Source of the DNA: Nannocystaceae bacterium
Lineage (GTDB): Bacteria; Myxococcota_A; Polyangia; Nannocystales; Nannocystaceae
Length of the DNA: 64,000 bases
Reading direction: 5' to 3'
NCBI GenBank assembly: GCA_046351635.1
Contig: JAXLYC010000019.1
Coordinates: forward strand, 46,035 to 110,034
This document shows positions 1,236 to 51,175 of the stretch, in pieces (position 1 is the stretch's first letter; every line of letters starts with the position of its first letter). Under the pieces are notes generated by a model that did not search any database, was not told where the DNA came from, and worked only from the letters and a program-made list of their open reading frames with translations. The translations under genes were made by a program, and so were the position numbers.

Positions 1236-1978
1236 TCAACGCGGCCGCCGGGGCTCGCGGAGCACCCGCAGGAACCAGGCCACGCCGGCCGCGAGCGTCA
1301 CCAGCGAGAACGCGCCGCAGGCCAGGCCCCACAGCCAGTAGGTCCCGCCCAGGGCCTGGGCCATCTGGGCCGTGTCCGAGGCCATGGTGCCTGCGCCGGT
1401 CACGGCGGTGTCGGTGAAGAGGTAGTCCGCGCGCGAGAACACCGACAGCGCGAGCTGGGTCGCCAGGAACACGCAGCCCAGCTGCGCAGTGGCGTCGCTG
1501 CCGCGCACCGCCAGCCACCCGGCCGCGCCGGCGACCGCGAGCGTGAACACCACGCCGAAGGGGTTGCGCACGACCAGCGCGAGCGCGACGACCAGCGCCA
1601 CGGCGATGGCGCCCAGCAGCCCCGCGCGCCGCGGCGCGAGCGGCCCGCGCCGAAGGCGATGGCCGCGACGATGGCAGGCCCGAGCAGACCGCCCGCGGCG
1701 GTGATGCCATGCGCGACGTGGCCGCCGCTGCTGCTGTGGCGCGCCACGCCAGAGCCGTCGGCGAAGATCGCCAGCGAGTCGAAGTGCCCGCCGGTCAGCA
1801 CCGCCGCGACGCCGTGCCCCAGCTCGTGGAACAGCGTCGACAGGAGCAACAGCGGGTAGGCCAGCAACGCACCGAACGGCACCAGGTACAGCGCGAGCGT
1901 GAGCACCACGCTCCACTTGAGCGCCGCGCGTGCGCGCCTGCGGGTCGCGGCATCTTCGAGCCAGTCGAGGTGGTGCAT
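1236..1978 (-). CDS. Membrane zinc metalloprotease (M50/site-2-protease-like, HELGH motif), interrupted by an apparent frameshift near 1650–1690 (possible sequencing error or pseudogene)
   Basis: ATG at 1978 gives MHHLDWLEDA…LLLLSTLFHELGHGVAAVLTGGHF…GPAIVAAIAFGAG in one frame (ORF 1400..2095). The membrane C-terminal half (LLGAIAVALVVALALVV…WFLRVLREPRRPR*) continues in the adjacent frame (ORF 1236..2204). The switch lies in a G-run (cgcggggctgctgg). It sits immediately upstream of the ECF sigma gene on the same strand. Confidence 0.6.
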
Positions 1979-2097
1979 GGCGGAGCCCCGGAGCTTGGGA
2001 TACCACGCGCAGCGCGGCGTGCATTCCGGGTACACTGACGCCCGTGCAGAACGCCTCGGGCACGCGGGATCGCCGGGTCGTCGCGACGCGCCCACGG

Positions 2098-2460
2098 CTG
2101 CGCGCTGCCCTGGCGCAGCCCGCCACGCGGCACGGCCTGCTGCTGGCCGCGCTCGCGACCGCGCCGCTGGGCTGCGGCGACGTCGAGCCCGACCACCCCG
2201 TCACGAGCTCCGCCGGTCACGACGCTGGTGCCAGCGGCGACTCCACGGCCGCCGACACCACCGCCGGCTGCACCCCCGGCGCCGAGGGCTGCGCGTGCAC
2301 GCCCGGCGGCTCCTGCGACGCGGGGCTGTCGTGCCTGTCGATGATCTGCGTCGACGCGGGCATGAACTGCCCCGTCGGCACCGAGGGCTGCGACTGCACC
2401 GAGGGCGGCACGTGCGACCCGGGGCTGGCGTGCGTGTCGCAGACGTGCGTGATGCCGTGA
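2098..2460 (+). CDS. Small secreted/lipoprotein-like Cys-rich protein with an internal duplication (start uncertain)
   Basis: The C-terminal part of ORF 1930..2460 has a hydrophobic leader (LLLAALATAPLGCGD) then two copies of G-x-EGC-x-CT-x-GG-x-CD-x-GL-x-C-x-S-x-x-CV. No ATG is near the leader, so I assume the CTG at 2098 (a GTG at 1930 is possible). Confidence 0.4.
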   Translation: MRAALAQPATRHGLLLAALATAPLGCGDVEPDHPVTSSAGHDAGASGDSTAADTTAGCTPGAEGCACTPGGSCDAGLSCLSMICVDAGMNCPVGTEGCDCTEGGTCDPGLACVSQTCVMP

Positions 2461-2730
2461 GCGCCGCGGCGCGCGATCACGGCGGCGCCTGCTTCGCGAG
2501 CGCACTGCATTCCGTGGGACGGGCACGTGCGCTCTCGGCTCTCCGCGCAGCGGCGGTGCTCTGCCGCAACCGCTCGACGCGGCGGTCGTGGCGTTCGCTC
2601 GCGGGAGTGAACTGCACGGACGCGATCGGATGGCCACGATGCCGTGTCATCGCGACCGCAGAGCGCACCCGCGCGCACCGACTCGCGGTGGCGCCGTGAG
2701 ATTTGCGCGGCGCCAACCGGAAGAACCTCG

Positions 2731-2786
2731 TTGACGAATCTACAATCGCCAGGCATGGCGCCAATGCGATTGTGGAGGCGTATCGG
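2731..2786 (+). promoter_or_regulatory. Candidate promoter/operator upstream of the LRR-like lipoprotein gene
   Basis: TTGACG (2731–2736) is −35-like. An imperfect dyad AATCGC-N16-GCGATT spans 2744–2771. GGAGG (2774–2778) lies 9 nt before ATG 2787. Confidence 0.25.
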
Positions 2787-3914
2787 ATGACGCTCGGCGG
2801 CGATGAGAGGACGAGATTCCTCGTCGTCTCGGCGCTGATGCTGCCGGCGATGATGCACGTGTTCGCATGCGGCAACTCGGACGAGTCCGGATCCGGTAGC
2901 ACTGTGCAAGCGACGCACGAGTCAGGAACGCCAACCGGGTCCAGCGAACCCGATACGACACTGAATGCGACCCTGTCGCATTCAGTGAGCGGGGAGACCG
3001 ACGCGCAATCGTCGACATCCTTCGGCGGCGCCAGCAGCGATGCGGAGTCGACTGCTTCAGGCGGCGACGTCGCGCCGGGCAGCTGCGACCGATTCGATAC
3101 CGTCGAACGCAACGTCGACGTGTATACCCAAGCGGATGCGCAGCAACTCATGGGGCTACAGTGCGTAGTCTCCGATCTCGACATCTATTCTCTGCCAGCA
3201 GACCCAGTCGTCGACCTGTCGCCATTCACAGCGCTTCATGTGGTTGGCGAGGACCTGGCCGTCAATCTCCTCGGCCTGCCGGACCTTCATGGGTTCGACG
3301 CGCTCGCGCGTGTCGGTGGGGACCTCGTCCTCGGTGGCGAGGGACCCGACATCCCTGGCTGTCTCGTGAATCCAGGCTCGCTCACGCTCGACGGCCTCGA
3401 CGCGCTAGAGCAATTGGAAGGATTGTCGATTTGCGGCCTCGATGCCCGCGGGCAGTCCGTCGCCCCTTTGCAGTCGATCGCCGCGCTCGACGCGGCGCTC
3501 GACGGCGAACTCGAACGGGTCTCGCTGCGCTACCTACCCGCGCTAGCCTCGATCGACGCGCTCAGCGGGGTCACGCACCTCGATGGACTGGTACTGATCG
3601 ACTTGCCGCAAGTGACTGACCTTGCCCCGCTCGGCGAGCTGGGCGGGATGATCTCCATGACGATGTGGCGGACCGGCGTCGCCGACTTGCACGGGCTGGA
3701 GTCCGTCATTGCACTCGACGACCGCCTCGACATCAGCTTCAACGATCAGCTCGTCACGCTCGATGGCCTCGACGCGCTCGCCTCCGTCGGTGCGCTCTAC
3801 ATCACCAACAACGCGATGCTACCGCAGACCGAGGCCGAGGCCTTCGCGGCCACCATCGATGTCGCCGCGGAGGTCGTGATCTGCGGCAACCTCGATGGCG
3901 AGCCCTGCGCGTGA
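2787..3914 (+). CDS. Lipoprotein with leucine-rich-repeat / receptor-L-domain-like repeats
   Basis: ATG 2787 is preceded by GGAGG 9 nt upstream. The leader is MTLGGDERTRFLVVSALMLPAMMHVFAC (lipobox). It has repeated L-x-x-L-x-L-x-x-L-x-x-LDGL motifs and ends ICGNLDGEPCA. Confidence 0.75.
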   Translation: MTLGGDERTRFLVVSALMLPAMMHVFACGNSDESGSGSTVQATHESGTPTGSSEPDTTLNATLSHSVSGETDAQSSTSFGGASSDAESTASGGDVAPGSCDRFDTVERNVDVYTQADAQQLMGLQCVVSDLDIYSLPADPVVDLSPFTALHVVGEDLAVNLLGLPDLHGFDALARVGGDLVLGGEGPDIPGCLVNPGSLTLDGLDALEQLEGLSICGLDARGQSVAPLQSIAALDAALDGELERVSLRYLPALASIDALSGVTHLDGLVLIDLPQVTDLAPLGELGGMISMTMWRTGVADLHGLESVIALDDRLDISFNDQLVTLDGLDALASVGALYITNNAMLPQTEAEAFAATIDVAAEVVICGNLDGEPCA

Positions 3915-3977
3915 GGCCTGGGCCGCCGTGCCGTGCGTGGCGTCCGCCGTGATCGACTCCGCCGGCGCGGCGCGCGA

Positions 3978-4886
3978 TCACGGCGGCGGTGCAGCCGGCG
4001 GCTCCGCCTTCGCTGGCGCGCCGGCCGGAGCCACCTCTGCGCCGCCGGTTGGCTTCGCGAACTTGCTCGCATCCACCGGCACGTCGATCTCCACCACCGT
4101 CAGGGTCTGCGTGGCCTTGGCGATGCCGATGTCCATGACCTGCTTGTACGGCATCTTGAAGCCCTGCACCTCGCGGTAGTCCTGCAGCTCGACCGTCACC
4201 GGCGTCTCGCCCATGGGCGTCTGCTGCTTGAACTGATGCGCGACCTGCAGGCCGCTGTCGGCGTCGAAGGACAGCGTGACGGTCGCGCCACTCTTCGCGG
4301 TGAGCTCGACGTCGTAGACCGGCTTGCCGCCGAGCTCGCGCTTGCCGACCGTGCGCGCGGCGGTGAAGTAGCGCTGCCACTGCGCCGGCAGCGACGGGCT
4401 CGAGGCCCACGCCTGCTGCTCGGCCTCGATGCCGGTGAGCGTGCGCAGGCCGCTGACGGGATCGTCGGCCCAGATCACGTCGCCCTGCTTGCCCGCACGC
4501 ACGGTGCCGACGCCGACCATGGTCTGCTCGCTGTAGAAGTCGCCGGCCTTCCACCACAGCTTCATGTCGCCGCCGATGTTCTGCGACAGCACCGAGACGG
4601 TGCCCTCGAGGTGCAGGCTCTGCAGCTGCTCGATCTTGTCCTTGCCGCCCTGCGCGACGGTGGCCTTGTCGAGCAGCGACTCGGCGCTGGGCAGATCCGA
4701 CGACGGCGCGGCCTTGGCTGCCGGGTCGCCGGCCTTGCCCTCGCCCGACTTCGTCTCGCCCTTGGCGGTCGCAGACTTGCCGTCCGCGGTCGTGCCCTCG
4801 TCTTTCTTCGCGTCGCACGCGACCGGCGCGAGCAGCAGCACGAGGGACAGACACAGCCGGGGGTGGACGCGGCGCGGACGGTTCAC
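3978..4886 (-). CDS. Hypothetical lipoprotein (302 aa)
   Basis: GTG 4886 has AGGAG 7 nt upstream. The leader is VNRPRRVHPRLCLSLVLLLAPVAC. The GTG overlaps the TGA of the upstream S41 peptidase (GTGA). Confidence 0.7.
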   Translation of the reverse strand: MNRPRRVHPRLCLSLVLLLAPVACDAKKDEGTTADGKSATAKGETKSGEGKAGDPAAKAAPSSDLPSAESLLDKATVAQGGKDKIEQLQSLHLEGTVSVLSQNIGGDMKLWWKAGDFYSEQTMVGVGTVRAGKQGDVIWADDPVSGLRTLTGIEAEQQAWASSPSLPAQWQRYFTAARTVGKRELGGKPVYDVELTAKSGATVTLSFDADSGLQVAHQFKQQTPMGETPVTVELQDYREVQGFKMPYKQVMDIGIAKATQTLTVVEIDVPVDASKFAKPTGGAEVAPAGAPAKAEPPAAPPP

Positions 4887-6319
4887 GGTGGCGCTCCTGG
4901 GGCTCGGGGATCGGTCGGCGCGGTGGGGCCCGCGTTGCCCAGGGCCGCGACCGCGGCCTCGAGCACCGGATCGTGCCCGCCCACGAAGGACTCGCGGGTC
5001 TCGGGCACGAGCACGTCGGGCACCACACCGACCCCCTCGACCACGGTGCCCTCGGGCGAACGGTAGTCGCCCACGACATACTGCAAGATGGCGCCGCCGG
5101 GCAGCTCGTCGATCACCGACGGCAGCGCCGCGCCGGCCGAGGCGCGGCCGCCGAAGATCGTGACGCGCCCCAGGTCGCGCAGGCCCGCGGCGAAGATCTC
5201 CGACGTGCTCGCGGTGCCCTCGTCGACCAGGATCGCGACCTTGCCGGTGAAGCCCAGCGGGTTGCCCTCGACGTTGAACTCCTGCTTGAAGTCGCGAAAC
5301 TGCAGCGTGCCCAGGCTGCCGGGTTGCGACAGCAGCATGCGCGCGACCGGCACGCTCATGGCCCCGACACCGCCGGGGTTGCCCCGCAGATCGAGCACCA
5401 GCGCGGTCATGCCGGCGTTGCGCAGCTCGGCCATGCCGGCCTCGACGCGCTTGACCATCGGCAGCATCCACACGTTGAACGCGAGGTAGCCGACGGTGGT
5501 GCCCGGCATCATCCGCCACGTCACGCGCGTGGGGATGTTCTCGAGGTTGCCCAGGGTCACGCGCTCGCCCTCGGGCTCGGCGCACTGCAGCATGCGGATC
5601 ACCTGGTGGCCGTCGGGCCCGGCCAGCTTGACCTTCTTCGACTGGCCCGCGCGCGCGCACGACAGCCGCGCCGAGGCCACGCGCCCCAGCTCGAACGCCA
5701 GCTCGCTGGGCCGCTGGCTGCGCGCACGCAGGCGCGCGATGGCCTCGTCGAAGTCGCGGTCGTCGACCGCGAGCAGGGTCGCGCCGGGCTCGACCGTGCC
5801 CAGGTGCCCGCCGGCGTGGCTGTCGACCACGACCAGCCGATCGTCGATCCAGCGCACCGACAGCGGCGGCTCGGCCGAGCCCTCGCGGCGCTCCTCGTCC
5901 TGCCCGCCGCCACCGGGCGGGAACAGGCGGAAGTGGCTCTGGCCCAGCTCGCCGAGCATCTCGTTGATGATCGCGTAGCCGCGATCGGCCTGCTCGATCC
6001 CGACGAGCTTCTGCGCGTAGCGCAGCCGCAGCGCCGGCCAGTCCTTACAGCCCAACGTCGGGTCGTAGTGCTTCTGCAGCACCCGCAGCCACACCTGCTG
6101 CAGCGTGTCGGCGTAGCGGCTGGCGGGCAACGCCGGCAGGCTCGCGGGATCGAGCGTGCCGTAGTCGACGCACGCCGGCGTGGGCTTTTCGCTGGGCGTA
6201 GGCTCGGGCGCGCGCTCGGGCGTGACCGCGGTCGACGAGGGCGTGGGCGCAGGCTCACCGCAGCCCAGCGCGAGCGCGAACACGGCGGCCGGGCAGCCGC
6301 GACCGCAGGTGTGCATCAT
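4883..6319 (-). CDS. S41 family C-terminal processing (tail-specific) peptidase, lipoprotein
   Basis: ATG 6319 gives MMHTCGRGCPAAVFALALGC. Motifs include LVLDLRGNPGG and VAILVDEGTASTSEIFAAGLRD (S41 catalytic Ser/Lys region). The start ATG overlaps the TGA of the upstream crp-like gene (ATGA). Confidence 0.85.
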   Translation of the reverse strand: MMHTCGRGCPAAVFALALGCGEPAPTPSSTAVTPERAPEPTPSEKPTPACVDYGTLDPASLPALPASRYADTLQQVWLRVLQKHYDPTLGCKDWPALRLRYAQKLVGIEQADRGYAIINEMLGELGQSHFRLFPPGGGGQDEERREGSAEPPLSVRWIDDRLVVVDSHAGGHLGTVEPGATLLAVDDRDFDEAIARLRARSQRPSELAFELGRVASARLSCARAGQSKKVKLAGPDGHQVIRMLQCAEPEGERVTLGNLENIPTRVTWRMMPGTTVGYLAFNVWMLPMVKRVEAGMAELRNAGMTALVLDLRGNPGGVGAMSVPVARMLLSQPGSLGTLQFRDFKQEFNVEGNPLGFTGKVAILVDEGTASTSEIFAAGLRDLGRVTIFGGRASAGAALPSVIDELPGGAILQYVVGDYRSPEGTVVEGVGVVPDVLVPETRESFVGGHDPVLEAAVAALGNAGPTAPTDPRAPGAPP

Positions 6320-7023
6320 TCGTAGGTGACGCGCTCGAGCGCGGCGAGATCCAGCACCACGATCTCCTGCCGGCTCAAGTTGAGGATGCCGTTGCGCTGC
6401 ATGCGATTGAGCGCGCGCGAGATCTCCTCGCGCACGGTGCCCAGTCGCGCCGCCACGGTGTTCATGTCGAGCTGACGCGGGATCACGGTCTGCTTGCCCG
6501 GCTCGGCGCCGTTGCGCACCGCGAGCGTGAAGAGGAACGACGCCAGCCGCCGCTCGACCGAGCGCAGCGACAGATCGAGCACGAGATCGATCAAACGGTT
6601 GGCGCGGAACGCCATGTGCCGCATCAGCGCGAACGCCAGCGCCTCGCTGCGCGCGGTCAGCTTCACGACCGCATCGGTCTCGAAGCGGTAGACCTCCGAG
6701 TCGGCCATCGCGAAGGCGCTCGCGGCACACTGCACGTCGCGCGGCAGGAAGCCCTCGCCGATCATCTTGCCGGGCTCGGCCAGGTACAGGATCTGCTCGC
6801 GGCCCTCGCTCGAGATCAGGCTCAGCTTGAACTCGCCCGACTTGACCAGGAACAACCCGGGGCCGGGCTCGCCGCGACGGAACAGCGAGCGCTTGCGCTT
6901 GACGTCGAGCAGCTCGGCGATCTGGCACAGCTGGCCGAGCACGTCGTCGGGCACGCGGTCCCAACCTGCCCAGCGCTTGAGCATCTTCGAGACCAGCTCG
7001 GCGTCCCCGGCGTCGACTGCCAT
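6316..7023 (-). CDS. Crp/Fnr family transcriptional regulator (cNMP-binding domain + C-terminal HTH)
   Basis: The 235 aa product has a β-roll region (LFRRGEPGPGLFLVKSGEFKL) and an HTH (RQLDMNTVAARLGTVREEISRALNRMQRNGIL). Confidence 0.9.
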   Translation of the reverse strand: MAVDAGDAELVSKMLKRWAGWDRVPDDVLGQLCQIAELLDVKRKRSLFRRGEPGPGLFLVKSGEFKLSLISSEGREQILYLAEPGKMIGEGFLPRDVQCAASAFAMADSEVYRFETDAVVKLTARSEALAFALMRHMAFRANRLIDLVLDLSLRSVERRLASFLFTLAVRNGAEPGKQTVIPRQLDMNTVAARLGTVREEISRALNRMQRNGILNLSRQEIVVLDLAALERVTYE

Positions 7024-7164
7024 GCCGCGCAGTGTAACTCCATGGGACCGCTCATGCGACTGTTCTCACGGCTCGGCTGCGCGCAAGGGGTCCGCGAGGC
7101 TCGTGTGGGCCCGCCACGCGCTCGCGGCCTGCCGTCGCCGGCGTGGGGCCAGGCGTTCAGGGGT

Positions 7165-7509
7165 TCATGCGTCCTCGAAGCGACCCGCGCGGAAGAGCCC
7201 GCGCTTGCGGCCTGCCGGCGGGGACTCGGGCGCCAGCTGGCGCAGCCAGGTCCACGAGTAGATCCCGGCGTCGTGTCCGTCGCTGAAGCGGATCCCCAGC
7301 GCATACGCGCCCATCTCGTAGAGCCCCACCGCGGTGACGTCCGCGGCGGGTTCGTGGAACCGGACGACGTCGCCGTGCCCCTGGCACTGCGCGCACGGAC
7401 ACCAGCCGCGCAGATATGGGATCGGCAGCTCGCTCGTGGTGCCGTCGGCCCACGCGATCGCGAGCAGGTTCTCGCCTCTGTGGTGGGCGACATCGAGCGG
7501 CTGCGCCAT
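7165..7509 (-). CDS. DUF971 domain protein (gamma-butyrobetaine-hydroxylase-like N-terminal domain)
   Basis: The 114 aa product carries YLRGWCPCAQCQG, the signature of DUF971. Confidence 0.75.
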   Translation of the reverse strand: MAQPLDVAHHRGENLLAIAWADGTTSELPIPYLRGWCPCAQCQGHGDVVRFHEPAADVTAVGLYEMGAYALGIRFSDGHDAGIYSWTWLRQLAPESPPAGRKRGLFRAGRFEDA

Positions 7510-7623
7510 GCGCCGCGAGCATACCGCGAGCCGTCGCGGCTGCCGCAGCGACGCCGGCAGCGCCGGTCGCGAGCGCGCCGCGGGGTTGCCGGGGCCGGCG
7601 CGACCGCGTCAAGCTCGGCCTCG

Positions 7624-7992
7624 ATGCTGCTGCTCCGCCGTCCTGCGTCGCTGCTGGTGACGCTCATGCTCGCGCTCGCGTGCCAGCGAGATCCGGCACA
7701 ACCCGCCGAAGGTGGCGGTGAAGGCGGTGGCTCGACCGGCAACTTCGACGCGCAGCTCGAAGAAGCGTGCCGACCGTGGTGCATGCACAACCTCGACTGC
7801 AACCCCGGTGCGACCGACGTCGAGATGTGCACCGCGTCGTGCGTCGAGGTCGAGTCGCACTACGGGCAAGACTCGCAGGAGTGCCGCGACGCCGTGATCG
7901 CGTTCTACGACTGTCTCACGACCGTGGAGTGTGGCGGCGGGTCGATGTGCCAGGGGCAGAGCACGACCGTGCATGATCTGTGCGGCAACTGA
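7624..7992 (+). CDS. Small Cys-rich lipoprotein (122 aa)
   Basis: ATG 7624 gives MLLLRRPASLLVTLMLALACQRD (lipobox). The mature part contains 10 Cys. It is the C-terminal portion of long ORF 6616..7992, whose upstream part is an out-of-frame artefact. Confidence 0.6.
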   Translation: MLLLRRPASLLVTLMLALACQRDPAQPAEGGGEGGGSTGNFDAQLEEACRPWCMHNLDCNPGATDVEMCTASCVEVESHYGQDSQECRDAVIAFYDCLTTVECGGGSMCQGQSTTVHDLCGN

Positions 7993-8058
7993 AGCGGGCA
8001 CGGGCACGGGCACGGAGCAGGGTGTCCCGAAGAACGCTTCGCGTTCTTTCGCACCCCG

Positions 8059-8949
8059 CTAGCTTCCCATCGCGCGCAGGACCCCGTCGAGGCGGTGGCA
8101 CAGCTCGACGGGGACCCACAGCGCGCGGCCGTGGGGGCCGCCGCGGAACGCCAGGCCGCAGCTCTCGAGCTCGGCGCACGGCGTCGGACCGGGGGCCGCG
8201 TCGCCGACGGCGATCGCGAGCCGATCCTGCTGCAGCACCGCCTCGATGCCGCGCGCGTCGAGGCGATCGCGCACGAGCGCGCCGAGCAGCACCAGCGCGT
8301 CGCTCGACAGCGTCGCGACCAGGATGCCCAGCAGGTGGTCGTCGCGCAGCACCTGCTCGACCTCGAGCTCGACCGCGCCGCGCATCGTCGTCACGCCCAT
8401 GCCGGTCGCGGCCATGCGCCGCGACAGCCCCAGCCGCCGCGCGATGGCGGACAGCGAGGCGTCGCCGGCCTGTTCGAGGCCCGCGCGCAGCGAGCGGGAT
8501 CGCAGGGACTCGTCGGTGCGCGGCGTCGACTCCTCGGGCGCGCGGTCCGGCTGCACCAACGGCGCGGTCAGCTCGCGATCGTCGATGCGGATCGCGAGCT
8601 CGAACGCCCGCAGCCGCGCGCGCTCGTGGCCGACCAAGCCCGCGACCATCGCCCGCGTGACCGCGCGCAACGCCGCGACGCCGTCGTGCGCGGCGCGCTC
8701 GTCGACGCGATCGGGCTCGGCGAGGTAGCGCGCCGTCACGGCATCGGCGTGGGCGAGCCGCGAGACCAGCTCGATCGGCCAGCGCGTGAACGGATGCCCG
8801 CTGGCGTGCAGCGCCCGCAGCAGCCGCGCGACCGAGCGACGCGTCGCCCGGACCTCGTCGTGCAGCGGCATCGGCTCGGCGTTGGGCTGCGGCTCACCGG
8901 CGATCAGGCGCAAGCGCGGGCTCGACTCGCTCTGCATGTCTGGCTGCAT
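8059..8949 (-). CDS. Hypothetical protein (296 aa), possibly regulatory
   Basis: ATG 8949 gives MQPDMQSE. Composition is protein-like and no family was recognised with confidence. Confidence 0.4.
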   Translation of the reverse strand: MQPDMQSESSPRLRLIAGEPQPNAEPMPLHDEVRATRRSVARLLRALHASGHPFTRWPIELVSRLAHADAVTARYLAEPDRVDERAAHDGVAALRAVTRAMVAGLVGHERARLRAFELAIRIDDRELTAPLVQPDRAPEESTPRTDESLRSRSLRAGLEQAGDASLSAIARRLGLSRRMAATGMGVTTMRGAVELEVEQVLRDDHLLGILVATLSSDALVLLGALVRDRLDARGIEAVLQQDRLAIAVGDAAPGPTPCAELESCGLAFRGGPHGRALWVPVELCHRLDGVLRAMGS

Positions 8950-9057
8950 CGCTGTCCGAGGCCGCGGCCTTGAAGTCGGCGCGCGCACCGTCGGCCCCGA
9001 TCCCGGCCGCTTCGCCGGAAACTTGGTCGGGCGCAGCCTACATGTAGGATATGCACG

Positions 9058-9492
9058 ATGGAGCCCGAGAACCCGCAAAGCAGCGCTCCCCGAAGCTTTC
9101 GTGTGCGTCCGCTGCCGCATCCCGGCGGCCCCCCGTTCGATCGACGCAAGCGCCGGTCGAGCTCGGCTGCGGTCGCGATCGAGCTGGCGCTCACCAGCGC
9201 GGCCGCGCGGGCGCGACTGGACGCGATGATCGTGGTCGACGACGACGGCATGTTGGTCGCGCGCAGCCGCGGCCCGCTCGATCTGTCGATGCTGGCCGCG
9301 GTCACGCCCATCGTGGGCCGGGGTCAGGCCATCCCGCGCATCAAGCGAGAGGGCCGGCAGCTCGACATGAGCGTCGAGACGATCGAGATCGCCGGTGACC
9401 GCTACTACGTCGCGGCGCTGGGCGGGCGCTACCTCGAGCGGCGTCGCGAGCTCGAAGACGGCGTGGCCGCGGCGCGGCGCATCCTGGCCTGA
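9058..9492 (+). CDS. Hypothetical protein, tentatively Roadblock/LC7-like; start uncertain
   Basis: …LDAMIVVDDDGMLVARSRG…IEIAGDRYYVAALGG… resembles MglB/Roadblock folds. It is divergent from the 8949 gene. Confidence 0.35.
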   Translation: MEPENPQSSAPRSFRVRPLPHPGGPPFDRRKRRSSSAAVAIELALTSAAARARLDAMIVVDDDGMLVARSRGPLDLSMLAAVTPIVGRGQAIPRIKREGRQLDMSVETIEIAGDRYYVAALGGRYLERRRELEDGVAAARRILA

Positions 9493-9624
9493 GCGGCTGT
9501 CCGCGGATGCTGGCGGCCTCTGCTCGCGCCGGCGACCGCAAGGAGACGGACCGAGGCCGGCGAGGCCGTTGCGACTCGCGTCCTTCCCGTCGCCGCCGCG
9601 ACGAGGGCGCGGACGATCGCGCGA

Positions 9625-10806
9625 TCACTCGAACGCGGCCAGCGCGGCGCGCAGGCCCGCATCGGTCTCGCCGGCGACCGGCACGATCGGATCGAGCGCG
9701 ATCGCGACGTCTGGGGTCACGCCCGCGCCGTCGACCAGACGATCGTCGGGCGAGAAGTAGCGCGCGACGGTGAACGTCGCGACCGAGCCATCAGGCAGGC
9801 CCAGAACCTCCTGCACGGTGCCCTTGCCGTAGCTGCGCTCGCCGACGATGCGCGCGCGCTTGTGATCCTGCAGCGCGGCCGCGAGCAGCTCCGACGCCGA
9901 CGCGCTGCGACGGTCCTGCAGCACCACCAGCGGCGTGGTCACGTCGCTGCCCTGGCTGTGCGCGGCCTCCTCGCGCAGCAGGCGACCGCCGCGACCCCGG
10001 GTGCGCACCAGTACTCCCGTGGCCACGAACGCGTCGGCGACGACCAGGGCCTCGTGGACCTCGCCGCCAGGGTTGCCGCGCACGTCGAGGATGATGCCGG
10101 CGAGCTCGTGTCGCAGCGCGCGCCGACGCGCGGCGATCGCCGCGAGCACGGCCGCACCGCTCTCGGCCCCGAAGTGGCGCAGCACGACGTGCGCGAAGCT
10201 GCGGCCACGATCGTCGCGGACGATCGCGGCTTCGACCATCTTGGCGCGGGGCTTGTCGAGCACCAACGCGACCTCGCGCGGGGCCGAGCCCTCGCCCGAT
10301 TGCACGAGCAACGCGACCTCGTCGCCGACCGCCCCGGCGAGCAACACCTCGGCCTCGATCTGCGTCGCGATGCGATCGACGTCGCGCTCGCCGATGCGAA
10401 CCACGCGATCGCCCGGCGCGAGCCCGGCGCGGGCCGCCGGCGACGCGGGCGTGACCGCGAGGACCTCGAGCGCGGGCCCCTGCTGGGCGTCGTGCCGCAG
10501 CGCGACCGCGAGCCCGGTGCTGCCGGCGTGCGGTCGCTTCGTCAGCGCCTTGCGCTGGGCCGACGTGAGGAAATGACTGTGAGGGTCCAGCTGCGCGAGC
10601 ATCGCGGACAGCCCCGCGGCGAGCAGGGCCGGCTCGTCCACCGGCTCGACGTAGCGGTCCAACACCGCGTCCAGCGCCTGTTCGAAGCCGGAACGATCGA
10701 GCCGGGGCGCGGGCGCAGCGGCGGGTCCCGGCCCGAAGCTGGCCGTGAGCGCCAGCGTGACCGCGACCCCCAGAGCAAACCCACCGACCGCGCTGCGGGC
10801 CGTCAT
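9625..10806 (-). CDS. S41 family carboxyl-terminal protease (CtpA-like) with PDZ domain
   Basis: The 393 aa product has an N-terminal signal/TM, a PDZ (GDRVVRIGERDV), and S41 motifs ILDVRGNPGG and SASASELLAAALQD…GERSYGKGTVQ. Confidence 0.9.
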   Translation of the reverse strand: MTARSAVGGFALGVAVTLALTASFGPGPAAAPAPRLDRSGFEQALDAVLDRYVEPVDEPALLAAGLSAMLAQLDPHSHFLTSAQRKALTKRPHAGSTGLAVALRHDAQQGPALEVLAVTPASPAARAGLAPGDRVVRIGERDVDRIATQIEAEVLLAGAVGDEVALLVQSGEGSAPREVALVLDKPRAKMVEAAIVRDDRGRSFAHVVLRHFGAESGAAVLAAIAARRRALRHELAGIILDVRGNPGGEVHEALVVADAFVATGVLVRTRGRGGRLLREEAAHSQGSDVTTPLVVLQDRRSASASELLAAALQDHKRARIVGERSYGKGTVQEVLGLPDGSVATFTVARYFSPDDRLVDGAGVTPDVAIALDPIVPVAGETDAGLRAALAAFE

Positions 10807-10853
10807 GAACGGTCATCGTGTCGTATCCTCCGCGCGAGGTCAAAGCGCCCCCG

Positions 10854-12776
10854 ATGAAATCCACGACGACGCTCCACATCACCACGGTCGCGCTCGCGCT
10901 GGCACTCGCGCCTGCATGCAAGAAGGACGAGCCCAAGGCAGACGAGAAGAAGACGGAGGCGACGCAGACCAAGACCACCGACGCCGGCAAGACCGATGGC
11001 AAGCCCACCGACGCCGGCAAGCCCACCACCGACAAGCCCGCGCCGATCCCCGGCGAGGGTGTCACACCGACCAGCCAGCCGCTGACGCCGGCGTCGAAGC
11101 TCAGCCGCGGCGCCGTGCTCGCGCACGTGCTGATGCCCAATCCCGCGACGATGCTGTCGGACATCAAGGCGCAGATCGTTCCGGCCCAGGCGGCGCAGTT
11201 CGTCGACGAGACCTTCTTGCGCACCATGGGCGCCGGCACGCTCGGCAGCCGCTCGGGCATCGCCAAGAACCTCGATCTGACCAAGCCCATGGGCTGCGCG
11301 CTGGTCGACACCACCACGACCAAGGCACCGGTCGCGTGCGTCATCGGCTACACCGGCGGCGCCAAGGCGCTCGTCACCGATCTCGGCGAAGAGGGCAAGC
11401 AGGCCGACGCCGGCGGTCACACGGCGAAGTACAGCGTCGGCGGGCAGGACATCTTCGTCGACGACATCGGCGGTGAGGCCATCGTCAGCACCGGGGCCGA
11501 CGTGTTCGAGAAGGCCAAGCCGTACATCGAGGAAAACCTCATCGCGCGCGCCGGCAGCGTCGCGACCGACCTCGAGGTCGTCGCCTACCCCGGCAGCCTC
11601 ATGACCCGCTACGAGGCCGAGCTGCGGCCCGTGCTCGAGGCCATGAGCAAGGTGGCGCCGGCGCCGGTGCCCGGCGTGCCGCCGAGCACGGAGAAGCTCA
11701 TGGGCGCGATGCAGGCCTATGGCGTGAAGGCCAACGCGCGGACGATCCAGACCTTCCGCGACATGGAACAGTTCACGCTCGCCTTCTCGGTCGAGCCCGC
11801 GGGCTTCGTCGCCCGCTACGCGCTGTTCCCCGTCGCCGGCAGCGAGCTCGAGGCGCAGACCAAGCTCACCGCCGCGGGCCCGGTCGATCCGAAGTTCGTG
11901 CGCAGCCTGCCGAGCTCGTCGTGGGCGGTCATCGCGGTCAACAGCCACGTCGGCGAGGTCGCGGACATGCCGTCGGTGAAGGAGCTGCGCGACGTGTTCG
12001 TGTCGGCCTACGCCGAGGCCGTGGGCAAGGATCCGGCCGCGACCTCCGCGGCAGTCGACAGCTTCGTCGCCGAGACGCGTGCGACCTACTCGGGCGTGAC
12101 CGCGCTGACGTTCATGCACGAGCCCGGCACCCTGGGCGGGCTCGCCGTGGTCGCCGGGCTGCAGCCGGGCAAGAGCGCGCGCGACGGCTACAAGACCTGG
12201 TCGGAGGGCTTCACGCCCGAGTCGATCCTCGGCCCCGAGGCCTCGAAGAAGGTCACCTGGTCGTTCCAGATGGACGCGGCCAAGGCCGGTGACGTCGCGG
12301 TCGATCGCTGGATCATCGAGCCGACCGACGCGGTCAAGGCCGACATGCGCAAGGACGGCGGCGCCAAGCTGGCCGAGTGGGAGACCAAGCTCGGCGGCCT
12401 GCGCCTGGTGCTCAACCGCATCGAGAAGAACGAAGAGGTCGTGTGGGTCGTGGGCCCGGGCTCGGACGACAAGTACGTGCAGCGGATGGTCGACGCGATG
12501 GGCGGGACCGGCTCGCTCGCGGACAACGCCGGTCTGTCGCGCGTGCTCGATCGCAACCCGTCGGTTTCGAGCATCTTCGCGTTCGACGTCAAGGGCATGT
12601 TCGCCTGGGTCTCCGAGCTCATGCCCGCCGAGGAGCGCGCCAAGCTGCCGGCCGGCATCGGCAGCGACCTGAGCGACGTCTTCATGGCCGCGTCCTACGG
12701 CGACAACGGCTCGCAGTCGGGCGAGATCGTGGTCTCGCAGACGCTCATCGATCAGCTGCGCGCACTGGCGAAGTGA
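10854..12776 (+). CDS. Hypothetical large lipoprotein (640 aa)
   Basis: ATG 10854 gives MKSTTTLHITTVALALALAPACKKDE (lipobox), followed by a Lys/Thr/Asp-rich linker and then a globular region. It is divergent from ctpA-like. Confidence 0.8.
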   Translation: MKSTTTLHITTVALALALAPACKKDEPKADEKKTEATQTKTTDAGKTDGKPTDAGKPTTDKPAPIPGEGVTPTSQPLTPASKLSRGAVLAHVLMPNPATMLSDIKAQIVPAQAAQFVDETFLRTMGAGTLGSRSGIAKNLDLTKPMGCALVDTTTTKAPVACVIGYTGGAKALVTDLGEEGKQADAGGHTAKYSVGGQDIFVDDIGGEAIVSTGADVFEKAKPYIEENLIARAGSVATDLEVVAYPGSLMTRYEAELRPVLEAMSKVAPAPVPGVPPSTEKLMGAMQAYGVKANARTIQTFRDMEQFTLAFSVEPAGFVARYALFPVAGSELEAQTKLTAAGPVDPKFVRSLPSSSWAVIAVNSHVGEVADMPSVKELRDVFVSAYAEAVGKDPAATSAAVDSFVAETRATYSGVTALTFMHEPGTLGGLAVVAGLQPGKSARDGYKTWSEGFTPESILGPEASKKVTWSFQMDAAKAGDVAVDRWIIEPTDAVKADMRKDGGAKLAEWETKLGGLRLVLNRIEKNEEVVWVVGPGSDDKYVQRMVDAMGGTGSLADNAGLSRVLDRNPSVSSIFAFDVKGMFAWVSELMPAEERAKLPAGIGSDLSDVFMAASYGDNGSQSGEIVVSQTLIDQLRALAK

Positions 12777-12858
12777 TGCGCGCTCGCGGCCGATCCCGCG
12801 GACGCGGGATCGGGCCGCGGGACCAGCCCGACGGCGCGGCGCAACGGCACCGCGCGCC

Positions 12859-21256: not shown

Positions 21257-21274
21257 GCCGCGGACATGGGCGGC

Positions 21275-24327: not shown

Positions 24328-24342
24328 GCCGCGGCCGCGGGC

Positions 24343-38673: not shown

Positions 38674-38791
38674 CGTAGCAACCCGTGCGGGCCCGATGCC
38701 AGGAACCTCACTTGAACCAGGTTCATAAAGCTGGTTCAATCCGGAAACCCCGGCCCGCGCGGCGCCGCCCACGGGGCAAAGGCGATCGTCC

Positions 38792-39649: not shown

Positions 39650-39812
39650 ACCCGCGCGTGCGAGCACGGCGCGGCGGTGGCCGTGATCGTGCCGCACGCG
39701 TGCGACGTCGCGTCGCGCGCGGCGTGGTCGCATGCGCATGCGTGCACCCGACCTCCGCCGGCCCGCTGCACGACTCGACGTATCGGCCGAACGGCGTCAC
39801 ATTGATCGCACG

Positions 39813-40837: not shown

Positions 40838-41040
40838 ACGACAAGGCCGGCAGCAGCTGCACGCATCGCGGCACGTGCCCGATGTTCGCGCTCTTCGATC
40901 GCGGCAACCAGCTCGAGTACTGGAAGGAGCGCTACTGCGACTCCGAGTTCACCCGCTGCGCGCGCTACCAGAAGATGACCGAGGGCGAGACGCCGCCGGT
41001 GCAGCTGCTGCCCAGCGGTCGCATGCTGCGGCTGGGCTGA
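40825..41040 (+). CDS. Small Cys-containing protein (71 aa) downstream of yeeE/yedE pair
   Basis: The start is ATG 40825 (or 40810), overlapping the previous stop. The sequence is MRVVNDKAGSSCTHRGTCPMFALFDRGNQLEYWKERYCDSEFTRCARYQKMTEGETPPVQLLPSGRMLRLG, with a C-x5-C-P…C-x5-C pattern. Confidence 0.4.
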   Translation: MRVVNDKAGSSCTHRGTCPMFALFDRGNQLEYWKERYCDSEFTRCARYQKMTEGETPPVQLLPSGRMLRLG

Positions 41041-41059
41041 GCTGCGGACTCCCGCTGGC

Positions 41060-42061
41060 TCACCGCGACTGGACCAGGTTCCAGCGATCCGCGACCAGCG
41101 GCTGCGACGGACCGGCGCCGCTCGAGAAGCTCCACTGCACCGCACCCTCACCGGCCGGGATCGCCTCGGCGCCCAGGCGCGGACCCGGATTCGGCGGGCT
41201 GTAGCCGTAGCCGCTGTCGTAGCCGCCGCCGTCGCTGTTGTAGCCGCCGTCGCTGTTGTAGCCGCCGTCGCTGCCGTAGCCGCCGTCGCTGCCGTAGCCG
41301 CCGGACTCGCCACCAGACTCGCCACCAGACTCGCCACCAGACTCGCCGCCAGACTCGCCGCCAGACTCGCCGCCAGACTCGCCGCCGGATTCGCCGCCAG
41401 ACTCACCGCCGGATTCGCCGCCAGACTCGCCGCCGGATTCGCCGCCAGACTCGCCGCCCGAGCCCTCGCTGCCCGAGCCGCTCATCGACTCCGACATGCC
41501 TTCGCCCTGGCTCTGCTTGTACCAGTCGTAGCAGAGCATCGCGGTGCCCGCGACGCCGACGGCACACTTGCCCCAATCGAACGGGTCGACCTTCTTCACG
41601 AACGCCTGCAGGCACTGGATGCCGGCACCGACGCCCGCGAGCCCGCACTTCGCTCCGGCACTGACCTCGCGGAAGCCCTGGGTGTTGCCGTCGGTGTAGA
41701 AGGCATGCAACGCGTCGGAGTCCGACAGCGTGTTCTCGACCAGCGAACCGTCTTCGCGCAGGGTCAGCGTGCCGGTGCTGGCACCCTCGGCCTCGATGGT
41801 CAGCGTGTCGTCGGTCGCGGACATCGTGAACACGACGACCGCGCCGTTGGAGCCGTCGATGCCCACGACCTGCATGGCCGCGCCGCCGATCGGCGTGATG
41901 TCCCAGCGCACGATGCCCAGCGAGGCGCGCGTCTGCTCCGACGCACCGACCAGCGCGATGCCGCTGCCATCACCCCCGTGATCTCGACCTGCCGCCGCGC
42001 ACCCCGAGATGCCGAGCGCAGCGAACACCACCATTGCCAGTTGCAACCGCGGACGTGCCAT
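41060..42061 (-). CDS. Lipoprotein with C-terminal low-complexity (GGES)13 and GGY(G/N)SD repeats
   Basis: ATG 42061 gives MARPRLQLAMVVFAALGISGC. A globular N-terminal ~230 aa is followed by SGGESGGESGG… and GGYGSDGGYGSDGGYNSDGGYNSD. Confidence 0.7.
   Translation of the reverse strand: MARPRLQLAMVVFAALGISGCAAAGRDHGGDGSGIALVGASEQTRASLGIVRWDITPIGGAAMQVVGIDGSNGAVVVFTMSATDDTLTIEAEGASTGTLTLREDGSLVENTLSDSDALHAFYTDGNTQGFREVSAGAKCGLAGVGAGIQCLQAFVKKVDPFDWGKCAVGVAGTAMLCYDWYKQSQGEGMSESMSGSGSEGSGGESGGESGGESGGESGGESGGESGGESGGESGGESGGESGGESGGESGGESGGYGSDGGYGSDGGYNSDGGYNSDGGGYDSGYGYSPPNPGPRLGAEAIPAGEGAVQWSFSSGAGPSQPLVADRWNLVQSR
41190..41460 (-). repeat. Perfect/near-perfect 12-nt tandem repeat (×13, encoding GGES) preceded by 18-nt repeats (×4)
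   Basis: On the plus strand the 12-nt unit is gactcgccacca / gactcgccgcca / gattcgccgcca, repeated 13 times across ~41303–41458. The 18-nt unit is gtagccgccgtcgctgtt/gcc, repeated 4 times across 41211–41285. Confidence 0.8.
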
Positions 42062-48746: not shown

Positions 48747-48892
48747 GCCGCGATCGTACCCGCGTCGCGTGCGAGCCTTCCGCGCCGCCGTATTCATCGG
48801 CCGGGTGGCCACCGCGGCGCGGCCGTGACGACTGGCACGATCGCGGTCGCGGGCGGGCGAACCGTCGGGCACCCACGGGCGACCCACGGCGC

Positions 48893-49405
48893 ATGGTAGG
48901 TTCGTCGACGATCAGTTTCGCGTTGGCTCTGGGAGCGACCCTGGTGACGGTCGCTGCATCGGGGGTTCCCGGCACCTCGGCATCCGCCACCGACACGCCC
49001 GAGCTCGCGCTCGAGGTGGACACGGGCGAGGGCATGGCGGCGATGGCCGCATCGGAGAGCAGCGGCGGCATCGTGGATCCGCGGCCGAACGAAGGCGACA
49101 CCCGCAAGTGCTTCGTCGGATGGATCACGACCTCGCGCTCGGGCAGCAGCTGCACCGTGACGCTGTCCGCCAAGGTCGCGATGCAGACCAGCGTGTGCAC
49201 CAACCCGCCCAACCCGTACCCCAACCCCAACCCCACCACGCAGGCGTTCCTCGACGGCGGGCTCAAGCTGGAGACGCCCGGCTGCTCGGTGACGTCGGCG
49301 ACCAAAGGCAAGGACACGGTGATCAGCTGCAACCCCTGCCCCAGCGAGATCACGATGACCGTCAACGCCGACGGCGGTCGCCGCGTCACCTTGCCGTTGC
49401 CGTGA
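48893..49405 (+). CDS. Hypothetical secreted protein (170 aa)
   Basis: ATG 48893 gives MVGSSTISFALALGATLVTVAASG, a signal peptide. The mature part is Cys-containing and Ser/Thr-rich. Confidence 0.5.
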   Translation: MVGSSTISFALALGATLVTVAASGVPGTSASATDTPELALEVDTGEGMAAMAASESSGGIVDPRPNEGDTRKCFVGWITTSRSGSSCTVTLSAKVAMQTSVCTNPPNPYPNPNPTTQAFLDGGLKLETPGCSVTSATKGKDTVISCNPCPSEITMTVNADGGRRVTLPLP

Positions 49406-49447
49406 GCCGTCCTCGCCCTCGATCACGTCACCCGGAGTGCACCGCCC

Positions 49448-50167
49448 ATGTCGATCCCCGAACGTCGTGAGACCGCAATCCTCGTCCCGGTCGCCCATCA
49501 CATCGAACCGCTGTGCGAGGCCGGTCTGACCGAGCTCGAGCGCATGGGCTACCCGGTGTTCCGCGTGCGCGGGCACTCGGACATCGCGCGCGGGCGCAGC
49601 CAGATGGCGACCCAGGCGCTCGAGCAGGGTCATCGCGCGCTCATGTGGATCGACGCCGACATGATGTTCGTGCCCGAGGACGTCGACCGCTTCCGCCAGG
49701 GCGAGCACGCCCTGGTCGGCGGCGTGTACCCGGTCAAGGGCCAGCGGCGGCTGACGATGCGACCGCTGCCGGGCACCACCGAGCTGATGTTCGGCGAACA
49801 AGGTGACGTGGTCGAGGTGCTCTACCTCGCGACCGGCTTTCTCTACAGCCGCGCCGAGGTCTACGCCGACGTGCAGCGGCGGCTGGAGCTGCCGCGTTGC
49901 GGCACCGACCCGACCGACGCCGCGATCCCGTTCTTCCTCTCGGTCGTGGCCAACGACGGCGGCACGCCGACGTACCTCAGCGAGGATTTCTCGTTCTGCT
50001 ACCGCGCGCGCGTGGCCGGCCACCGCGTCATGGCCGACACGCGCGTGCGGCTGGGCCACATCGGCAGCTACGTCTACACCGTCGAGGATGCGGGTCGCGA
50101 GCGGGTGCTGCACCCGAGCTTCCGCTTCCGCCTGCTCGACGAGCACGACACCCTGCCGGGTCAGTAG
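49448..50167 (+). CDS. Putative glycosyltransferase (GT-A-like, D-x-D)
   Basis: LMWIDADMMFVPEDVDRF contains the D-A-D motif. The C-terminal region is …TPTYLSEDFSFCYRARVAGHRVMADTRVRLGHIG. Confidence 0.5.
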   Translation: MSIPERRETAILVPVAHHIEPLCEAGLTELERMGYPVFRVRGHSDIARGRSQMATQALEQGHRALMWIDADMMFVPEDVDRFRQGEHALVGGVYPVKGQRRLTMRPLPGTTELMFGEQGDVVEVLYLATGFLYSRAEVYADVQRRLELPRCGTDPTDAAIPFFLSVVANDGGTPTYLSEDFSFCYRARVAGHRVMADTRVRLGHIGSYVYTVEDAGRERVLHPSFRFRLLDEHDTLPGQ

Positions 50168-51175
50168 CTGCTCGCGTCGAGCCTGACCTTGCCGCGGAAG
50201 ATCCAGTAGACGATCACGGTGTAGCTCGCGACCAGCGGCATGCCCAGGATCGCGATCCACAGCATGCGCCCGAGCGTGCCGTCCGAGGCCGCGGCCGCGT
50301 GCAGCTCGAGGCTCCATGCCGGGTCGAGGCTCGAGTGCACGAGGTTGGGGTACAGCGCCAGCGCGACCAGCGACGTCATCGCCGCGATGGTGCAGCACGA
50401 CGACACGAACGCCATGCCGCTGCGGCCGGCCGCGATCGCGCGGGGATGTTGGCGATCGCGAGCACGTGCAGCGCCACCAGCAGCCACGCCGCGGGCCAGC
50501 GTTGCAGCGCCGCAGTCGCGTGCGGATCGCGAACACGGCGCCCAGCGTCACGCCGAGCCACGCGAGCACGAAGACTGCGAAGCTGCGCCACATCCAGCCG
50601 CGCACGCGCTGTTGCAGCGCGCCCTCGGTCTTGAGGTGCAGGTAGATGCTGCCGTGCATGGCCGCGGTCGCGAGCGCGAGCACGCCGACCGCCACTGGGT
50701 AGGGCCGCAGCAGATCCGACAGCGTGCCGCGGTACTCGCCGCCGGGGCCCAGCGGCACGCCCTGCACGATGTTGCCCAGCAGCAGCCCGAACGCGAAGGT
50801 GGCGCTGGCGCTCGAGACGAAGAACGAGCCGTCCCACCACGCGCGCCAGCGCGGGTGATCGAGCTTGCTGCGGAACTCCAGCGAGATCGCGCGGCCGATG
50901 AGCGCGAAGAGCACCAGCATCACCGGCAGGTAGAAGCCCGAGAACAGCGCCGCGTAGGCCTGCGGGAACGCGCCGAACAGCGCGCCGCCGAAGGTCACCA
51001 GCCACACCTCGTTGCCGTCCCACAGCGGCCCGATGCTGTTGAGCGCGAGCCGTCGCTGGGTCTCGTCGCGCAGCCACACGTGCACGATGCCGACGCCGAA
51101 GTCGAAGCCGTCGAGGATCGCGTAGCCCATCAGCAGCACGCCGAGCAGGCCGAACCACACCAGCGGCAGGTCCAT
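50161..51175 (-). CDS. cydB: Cytochrome bd ubiquinol oxidase subunit II; two apparent 1-nt frameshifts near 50555–50565 and 50435–50445
   Basis: ATG 51175 overlaps the cydA TGA (TGATG). Frame A reads [31 protein letters not shown]…AVFAIRTR. A third frame then reads …ALQRWPAAWLLVALHVLAIANIP. The last frame (ORF 50161..50487) gives the canonical C-terminus …SLVALALYPNLVHSSLDPAWSLELHAAAASDGTLGRMLWIAILGMPLVASYTVIVYWIFRGKV. Confidence 0.75.

Follow-up and report, generated by a model that had tools for sequence, protein, structure and literature searches.

Genes with interrupted reading frames

The window (the whole 64-kb stretch of DNA analysed here) comes from a MAG deposited at NCBI as 'MAG: Nannocystaceae bacterium', where it is part of a 114-kb contig with locus tags U0168_*. 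Nucleotide alignment to an independent MAG of the same species (GCA_964505145.1, the sister assembly) revealed 26 small indels, 22 of them deletions and four insertions, gathered in seven short patches. These affect genes for an M50B peptidase, a zinc-ribbon paralogue, a 193-aa protein, a PQQ-like protein, a Lipid_desat protein, a Ser/Thr kinase and CydB, along with one intergenic spot (table 1). The eight frame breaks listed in the initial annotation all proved real, both by the continuity of Pfam domains across frames and by alignment to intact orthologues, but some had been misplaced and the indels had been under-counted. Neither an Rfam scan nor a tRNA scan gave any match in the window.

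Table 1. Features carrying small indels. Numbers in brackets are nucleotides lost (-) or gained (+) relative to the sister assembly.
Feature	Position in window	Strand	Indels
M50B peptidase gene	1236-1978	-	1624 (-1); CCCCC to CCCC on the + strand, a G-run on the coding strand
Intergenic patch	7108-7124		7108 (-5), 7124 (-1); from alignment to sister locus L085
Zinc-ribbon (CxxC...CxxC) paralogue	16670-17538	+	16992 (-1), 17008 (+1), 17077 (-1)
193-aa gene	20676-21256	+	21066 (-1); non-repeated G lost
PQQ_2-like beta-propeller gene	21275-23069	-	21382 (-1), 21390 (-1); 8 nt apart, near the 3' end
Lipid_desat (CarF-like) gene	28002-28781	-	28009 (-1), 28061 (-1), 28075 (-1); at the 3' end
Ser/Thr kinase gene (999 aa in sister)	33938-36929	-	12 indels in 855 nt (35653-36507)
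cydB	50161-51175	-	50445 (-1), 50524 (-1); 79 nt apart

The peptidase domain of M50B (PF13398) is split across two frames, with profile matches 4-92 and 97-201. The break had been correctly assigned to a G-run but placed at 1650-1690, and it is the only indel in 1.35 kb at 99.85% identity to the sister; the gene shows one frameshift and no substitutions. In the zinc-ribbon paralogue, the first two indels form a compensated pair that garbles about 6 aa, while the third is uncompensated and leaves the frame shifted. This last break, and the one in the 193-aa gene, stand as first described. The label 'DUF2378-like' for the 193-aa gene does not, as the intact orthologue has no Pfam or NCBIfam match. 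For the PQQ-like gene, the break is real, but what had been read as an extra C is a pair of one-base deletions with the same net effect on frame. Its name also holds only in part: a PQQ_2 match exists, but at 25.4 bits it falls below the cut-off of 27.6. The Lipid_desat gene is missing from the breaks listed in the initial annotation. Its three deletions (C5 to C4, G3 to G2 and G5 to G4) sum to -3, so that the ORF stays open with approximately 22 codons garbled; the gene otherwise differs from the sister, whose 260-aa protein matches PF10520 (1.6e-38), by two synonymous substitutions.

The kinase gene is the most heavily affected. Two uncompensated deletions, at 36507 (-1) and 35759 (-1), correspond to the two breaks first noted there. 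Ten further indels scramble the regions of the catalytic loop and the DFG motif, yet bring the frame back locally: 36455 (-1), 36430 (-1) and 36423 (-1) total -3; 36352 (-1), 36340 (-3) and 36333 (-2) total -6 and destroy the motif 'VADFGLARG'; 36130 (+1) cancels 36121 (-1); and 35667 (+1) with 35653 (+2) total +3. The kinase domain (PF00069) is consequently broken across frames (profile matches 1-83 and 117-258), and the source record splits the gene into two separate proteins, P0245 (36465-35704) and P0126 (35755-33941). Since both repeat the garbled reading, the indels are present in the deposited record itself.

cydB is broken twice, as first reported, although the deletion at 50524 had been placed at 50555-50565. 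One loss removes a non-repeated A and the other shortens GGG to GG on the + strand, so that three reading frames are needed for a single PF02322 domain (profile matches 1-207 and 233-302). Apart from these two frameshifts the gene carries one synonymous substitution relative to the sister, where an intact 338-aa CydB directly follows CydA. The two deletions are the sole 1-nt indels in 17 kb at 99.82% identity, and the only errors in the 3' end of the window (46.9-64 kb, 17 kb).

A dynamic programme based on codon usage with penalised +/-1 shifts was also run on the window. It called shifts at 4908, 17341, 18285, 33957, 40799, 42684, 44254, 50217 and 63790, all of which we attribute to gene boundaries or end effects because a signal peptide or Met follows, the genes are separate in the sister (with a 4-nt overlap), and the alignments are gap-free. 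The same scan missed all of the frame-restoring clusters.

Comparison with relatives

The sister assembly, a binchicken co-assembly, is about 99.7% identical to the window over approximately 59 of its 64 kb (loci L081, L084, L085 and L170) and is the only same-species comparator for most sites. All 26 indels are absent from it, and the affected genes are intact: M50B (247 aa), zinc-ribbon (289 aa, L085), the 193-aa gene (L085), PQQ-like (618 aa as called), Lipid_desat, the kinase (P0247) and CydB. The congener SSF46, assembled from Illumina reads with SPAdes at 98x, has the sister's version wherever a site was checked. There, the zinc-ribbon gene is likewise a single ORF, the 193-aa gene (GC3 0.91) and the PQQ-like gene (629 aa, GC3 0.94) are uninterrupted (all L001), and the kinase is intact at 992 aa (P0125). 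The proposed check against orthologous loci thus came out in favour of error: wherever the sites are covered, neither the sister nor SSF46 carries any of the lesions, and both encode the proteins in one frame.

Other same-species contigs (Logan L086, L088 and L171; JGI L082, L087 and L089) stop short of the indel sites; one of them (L089, with protein P0246) takes in just the kinase C terminus plus downstream genes, outside the indel patch. A metagenome scan with the intact kinase domain returned paralogues or distant kinases only (at most 52% identity) and no further same-species copy, since generic kinase motifs saturated the search. A literature search for SRR10035867, SRR17659557, 3300045365 and GCA_964505145 found no paper.

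Genuine length differences do occur in this population, and they do not resemble the private indels. The intergenic indel at 12857 also occurs in another independent assembly, and we class it as a true polymorphism together with changes in a hexamer repeat at 7999 and a 12-mer repeat at 41336.

Distribution and context of the indels

The 26 private indels compare with 142 substitutions in the 49 kb aligned. They are biased towards deletion (22 versus 4, p = 5e-4) and strongly clustered, with a median nearest-neighbour spacing of 15 nt against approximately 707 nt in 5000 random placements (p ≤ 2e-4). Substitutions are 4-fold more common within 30 nt of an indel (1.1% versus 0.27%, p = 8e-5). 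The patches ignore gene boundaries: the one at 21066-21390 runs across two convergent genes at their 3' ends, and the one at 7108-7124 shows that private indels reach beyond coding DNA.

Base runs account for part of the pattern. One-base deletions are enriched in runs of at least 3 (7 of 19, 9.8% expected, p = 0.0015) and of at least 5 (3 of 19, 0.6% expected, p = 2e-4), which bears out the 'homopolymer-type' description in the initial annotation to that extent, but 9 of the 19 remove a non-repeated base. At the same time, runs of at least 5 match the sister in 39 of 42 cases and runs of 4 in 209 of 210, and the four runs of at least 6 in the region are all unchanged. An uncorrected long-read assembly, as proposed, is therefore unlikely as a global description. 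With about half of the deletions in runs and nearly all runs correct, the errors form local patches rather than the homopolymer noise of a globally unpolished sequence; such a combination is atypical for a plain unpolished nanopore consensus. The sequence GATC adjoins two indel sites.

Outside the patches the pattern of substitution is purifying, with 53 synonymous and 19 nonsynonymous changes in unaffected genes, and no nonsense change was seen among the 45 genes compared between window and sister. The kinase alone has an excess of nonsynonymous changes (7 synonymous to 10 nonsynonymous), concentrated in its indel patch. The shifted segments each keep the high GC3 of functional coding sequence. 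Among multi-indel groups in coding sequence, 6 of 8 restore the frame, where about one-third would be expected by chance (binomial P approx. 0.02). This could hint at selection acting on real mutations, although local miscalls that preserve length fit equally well.

Origin of the frame breaks

Since the breaks are private to one MAG and follow an error-like pattern, we regard them as a problem of sequence quality rather than of biology. Our reading, to which we give a probability of roughly 85%, is that they are small clustered consensus errors, mostly lost bases, that probably persist as consensus or polishing faults of the deposited assembly. We infer this from the comparison of assemblies and not from reads. 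The preference for consensus error over biology expressed in the initial annotation is accordingly upheld: an independent assembly lacks the indels, which are deletion-biased and clustered, and there are no nonsense changes. Gene decay and programmed frameshifting look like a poorer fit.

Under the consensus-error reading, the deposited MAG would have lost, and occasionally gained, one or a few bases within seven short patches of 1 to about 855 nt, with extra substitutions entering the consensus in the same places. As in the sister assembly, the genes for M50B, the zinc-ribbon, 193-aa and PQQ-like proteins, Lipid_desat, the kinase and CydB are most likely all intact in the organism itself. The restriction to seven patches suggests that the consensus was poor locally or that polishing was incomplete; the most likely technical cause would be stretches where reads were sparse or noisy, such as sequence derived from long reads and left unfixed by short-read polishing within otherwise accurate sequence. 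Annotation would then have turned the breaks into fragments. The 114-kb source contig spans a tandem repeat at about 41.3 kb, a point at which the short-read sister is broken. Had the source been assembled from short reads alone by a de Bruijn method, reads carrying such indels would have to exist. Polishing with mis-mapped reads from kinase paralogues was considered as the cause of the kinase patch, and was set aside because cydB, M50B and Lipid_desat, for which no paralogues were seen in the window, have the same lesions. Nanopore errors at methylation motifs were rejected as a general cause, the indel contexts being heterogeneous and the errors clustered rather than bound to motifs.

Frameshift-aware correction and IDEEL-type length tests rest on the same concern over indel errors. 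Long-read assemblies err mostly by short indels; deletions prevail at homopolymers, a smaller share falls on non-repeated bases, and frameshifted pseudogenes result, more so at low coverage (PMC12007338, Kastor; PMC8103633). The window resembles long-read or hybrid assemblies in its deletion-dominated short indels, its homopolymer enrichment with a non-repeated minority, its split genes, the absence of the lesions from short-read assemblies of the same organism and the lack of nonsense changes. It differs in that the indels fall in seven short patches and that long homopolymers are right in more than 90% of cases. This patchiness suggests that polishing was incomplete or failed locally, or that depth was low in places, rather than that the consensus was uniformly noisy.

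Foremost among the alternatives, and in our view unlikely, is that the indels are real, recent and strain-specific mutations that have made genuine pseudogenes of cydB, M50B, the kinase and others, perhaps through a local deletion-prone process, such as patches of error-prone repair or a mutator background. The deposited sequence does contain them, deletions favour short base runs, which are also sites of replication slippage, several groups restore the frame as selection for compensating changes would, and in an already dead gene such as the kinase additional indels would be neutral. In nature, roughly one indel is expected for every ten or more substitutions, and coding DNA has fewer still. 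The 26 indels found beside 142 substitutions, at a divergence of 0.3%, greatly exceed that expectation. There are no nonsense changes, and constraint is not relaxed outside the patches, which cross gene boundaries and take in intergenic DNA; cydB, which otherwise shows one difference, has two uncompensated deletions only 79 nt apart; none of the indels is shared with the sister or, at the sites it covers, with SSF46; and a mutator would scatter indels over long homopolymers, of which 39 of 42 are unchanged. In genome decay, as in Mycobacterium leprae and recent host-restricted pathogens, nonsense changes, frameshifts and larger deletions accompany a relaxed dN/dS, and lesions are common to related strains. 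The window shares with such genomes several conserved genes with broken frames in a short region, but has only tiny clustered indels, in one assembly, amid purifying substitutions. Phase variation was also dismissed: phase-variable tracts typically measure at least 7-8 nt, whereas no affected run here exceeds 5 nt, half of the sites lie outside runs and runs of at least 6 are unchanged.

Still less probable are two narrower variants. In one, 'showers' of small deletion-biased mutations would have struck patches of about 100-900 nt, for example as repair tracts of an error-prone polymerase, with the frame partly restored by selection; cydB, M50B and the kinase would then have been inactivated within a very short evolutionary time. 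In the other, one or a few genuine strain polymorphisms, such as the C5 to C4 change in M50B, would be mixed with a majority of consensus errors. Genuine length polymorphisms do exist in the population (12857, 7999 and 41336), and the event at 1624 is isolated from other errors. The known polymorphisms, however, are intergenic or in-frame changes of repeat units and never break a frame, and the change at 1624 is indistinguishable from the C5 and G5 contractions in the patch at 28 kb.

Two further possibilities can be all but discounted. Any assembly may err, and with one same-species comparator for most sites the window might be right and its relatives wrong through spurious insertions; yet the relatives have uninterrupted ORFs with full Pfam coverage, two independent assemblies (binchicken and SPAdes) concur, and random insertions would not close the frame at about twenty sites. 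Programmed ribosomal frameshifting or transcriptional slippage, which would yield full-length proteins in vivo, had been kept open in the initial annotation and accords with the coding signature and domain continuity of both gene halves. It is ruled out for practical purposes by the in-frame orthologues, as a programmed site would be conserved in a sister that is 99.7% identical and in SSF46; the sites also have heterogeneous contexts without a common slippery motif, and several genes would require 2 to 12 successive shifts. In prfB and dnaX, one protein likewise lies in two frames, but there a conserved shift site is kept across orthologues, unlike here.

Indel errors of about 0.4 per kb over the window give the finding a modest weight for data quality. 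Three affected stretches keep an open frame and were exposed only by comparison with a close relative, so they would escape quality checks based on ORFs or pseudogenes. Protein entries are already mis-annotated: one is a 254-aa 'protein kinase' whose catalytic loop is garbled, another a 605-aa 'hypothetical protein'. Metabolic reconstructions would wrongly infer the loss of cytochrome bd oxidase. Because the organism almost certainly has these genes intact, the frame breaks carry no biological weight.

Comparison genomes and gene content of the window

Proteins encoded in the window are 100% identical to deposited 'MAG: Nannocystaceae bacterium' proteins with U0168_* locus tags, whose accessions run from MFO0634639.1 to MFO0634667.1 (P0001, P0126 and P0248 match MFO0634650.1, MFO0634639.1 and U0168_17395, respectively). 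The window was compared with SSF46, a congeneric SPAdes/Illumina MAG of ~98× coverage (loci L001 and L083; 85–93% nucleotide identity, collinear over window positions 7.6–35.1 kb), and with the sister (GCA_964505145.1), a conspecific MAG from an independent assembly, whose contigs 13 and 112 (L085, L084, L081 and L170) align at ~99.7% identity to 1106–2460, 3152–22773, 24037–41312 and 41249–64000. The sister is the more useful comparator. Short Logan and JGI contigs of the same species (L082, L086–L089 and L171) served as local controls. At the window's G+C content of ~72%, every one of the six frames contains long ORFs; third-position GC, three-frame translations and Pfam were therefore used.

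The bacterial 843-aa protein is homologous to the eukaryotic major vault protein and is kept in the sister, SSF46 and a JGI contig. The copper monooxygenase represents a type of enzyme more familiar from animals. SSF46 lacks both the 4.2-kb block and the lipoprotein gene, which are present in the window and the sister and therefore represent lineage-specific insertions or deletions. The DUF4215/D8C_UMOD-like protein aligns messily with its sister counterpart, the internal repeats cross-matching, and the length gap could be either real repeat variation or repeat collapse in one assembly. The hypervariable spot at 2460–3470 has flanks 99.8% identical to the sister, and Rfam and tRNA scans gave no match within it. 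Each of the tandem paralogues carries a zinc-ribbon-like CxxC...CxxC motif at the N-terminus and a transmembrane segment at the C-terminus, and no Pfam or NCBIfam family matches either gene.

Positions of private indels, length polymorphisms and other features in the window
Feature	Position	Strand	Detail
M50B indel	1624		C5→C4
Hypervariable spot	2460–3470		~1 kb; little coding signal; unalignable or only ~64% identical to sister
Intergenic patch	7108, 7124
(CACGGG)n repeat	7999		intergenic; one-unit difference
C-run	12857		intergenic; shared with Logan SRR10035867 contig, not sister or SRR17659557
Tandem paralogous genes	15810–16673, 16670–17538	+	287 and 289 aa in sister
Patch	16992, 17008, 17077		three indels relative to sister
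Lipoprotein gene	17560–18229		258 aa
Patch	21066, 21382, 21390		3′ ends of two convergent genes
4.2-kb block	26555–30627		456-aa gene, Lipid_desat/CarF-like gene, repeat protein
Lipid_desat/CarF-like indels	28009, 28061, 28075		net −3
DUF4215/D8C_UMOD-like protein	28837–30399	−	repeat-rich; 520 aa (sister 567 aa)
Vault protein homologue	30735–33266	−	843 aa; MVP_shoulder (PF11978), weak Vault_3 (PF17795) match
Broken kinase	33941–36465	−	two fragments deposited as separate proteins
Kinase indels	35653 to 36507		12 events
12-nt tandem repeat	41336 (gene 41060–42034)	−	one copy more than sister, in frame
cydB indels	50445, 50524
Copper monooxygenase	58254–59699	+	481 aa; both copper type II ascorbate-dependent domains (PF01082, PF03712; PHM/DBH-like)

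Frame breaks and their positions

The eight frame breaks named in the initial annotation are all real, judged by Pfam continuity and alignment to intact orthologues. A single profile runs on across frames in cydB (PF02322, positions 1–207 and 233–302), the kinase (PF00069, 1–83 and 117–258) and M50B (PF13398, 4–92 and 97–201, over two frames). Nucleotide alignment to the orthologues, which fixed the positions, moved the M50B break to 1624 from the proposed 1650–1690 and the upstream cydB break to 50524 from 50555–50565, and it replaced the 'extra C' reported in the PQQ-like gene with two separate 1-nt deletions (21382 and 21390). Two gene names fared less well: no Pfam or NCBIfam match stands behind 'DUF2378-like', and the PQQ_2 match exists but scores under its cut-off. 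The count of breaks was also too low, as the window carries 26 small indels private with respect to the sister, grouped into seven patches. The Lipid_desat/CarF-like ORF is still open because its net change is −3.

A dynamic-programming scan proposed further shifts (at 4908, 18285, 33957, 40799, 42684, 44254 and elsewhere). They coincide with normal boundaries between genes, being followed by new signal peptides or start codons; the sister calls separate genes, and the alignments are ungapped there.

Distribution and probable origin of the indels

Statistics were computed over 49 kb; coverage of 53.6–64 kb, added later, brought no new events. The indels are strongly clustered: their median distance to the nearest neighbour is 15 nt, whereas 5000 random placements averaged ~707 nt and never gave less than 153 nt. 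Deletions outnumber insertions by 22 to 4 (binomial p = 5e-4), and substitutions are enriched within 30 nt of an indel (1.1% versus 0.27% elsewhere; Fisher p = 8e-5). The description of the errors as homopolymer-type holds in part: 7 of 19 one-base deletions lie in runs of at least 3 (9.8% expected; p = 0.0015) and 3 of 19 in runs of 5 (0.6% expected; p = 2e-4), but 9 of 19 remove a non-repeated base. Nor are the errors global, since the window agrees with the sister in 39 of 42 runs of at least 5 and in 209 of 210 runs of 4. This patchiness suggests that stretches of poor consensus may locally have outlasted polishing.

A codon-by-codon comparison of 45 genes, guided by the sister's gene calls, found no nonsense substitution. 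Unaffected genes differ by 53 synonymous and 19 nonsynonymous changes, while M50B has one frameshift and no substitution, cydB two frameshifts and one synonymous substitution, and Lipid_desat three deletions and two synonymous substitutions. Several observations point to a probable technical origin, in support of the initial annotation's main interpretation, consensus error: the proportion of indels to substitutions (26 to 142, at 0.3% divergence), the clustering of the indels, their disregard for gene boundaries (one patch is intergenic and one spans two genes), the surplus of substitutions close to them, and the fact that neither the sister nor SSF46 carries them at any site where it could be compared. 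Artefacts of this class are known from published work: in long-read assemblies most errors are short indels, with deletions predominating at homopolymers and a minority of errors at non-repeated bases, and such errors inflate the number of frameshifted pseudogenes, the more so at low coverage (PMC12007338; PMC8103633). Near 41.3 kb the source contig bridges the 12-nt tandem repeat at which the short-read sister splits into two contigs, an indirect hint that the source contig derives from long reads.

Genuine mutation is the best-surviving alternative, though an improbable one. It retains some weight mainly because the frame is restored in six of the eight multi-indel groups that lie in coding sequence, against about one third expected, a misfit to a naive random-error model (P~0.02 by our own binomial calculation). 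Frame restoration can, however, also arise from length-preserving miscalls in neighbouring short runs, as in the pair at 36130/36121, where TT→TTT accompanies GGGG→GGG 10 nt away. The C-run at 12857 is a genuine indel polymorphism and behaves unlike the private indels, being intergenic and present also in a Logan assembly of another run; length differences of whole, in-frame repeat units at 7999 and 41336 also look biological. Programmed frameshifting, which the initial annotation had allowed for, can effectively be dismissed: each protein has single-frame orthologues at 99.7% and at ~88% identity, no motif is common to the sites, and between 2 and 12 shifts would be required in several genes. 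The converse reading, with errors in the relatives and correct sequence in the window, is excluded by the unbroken ORFs and complete domains of two independent assemblies. On the sequence comparison, our verdict is that the indels are probably not a biological feature.

Kinase fragments in the public record

The kinase orthologues of the sister (P0247, 999 aa) and SSF46 (P0125, 992 aa) give the same reading, including GRVRVADFGLARGIDRS; the window reads EVLDVPSPPVAG-PAGDAAGVLH...GRVRWPTS--SRGIDRS. MFO0634640.1 (254 aa), deposited as 'protein kinase', has a garbled catalytic loop, and the C-terminal fragment MFO0634639.1 (605 aa; U0168_17485) is deposited as 'hypothetical protein'. The indels are therefore present in the public record, and protein databases now contain both erroneous kinase sequences. 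The finding is of use as a caution about the quality of this MAG and of the protein entries that come from it.
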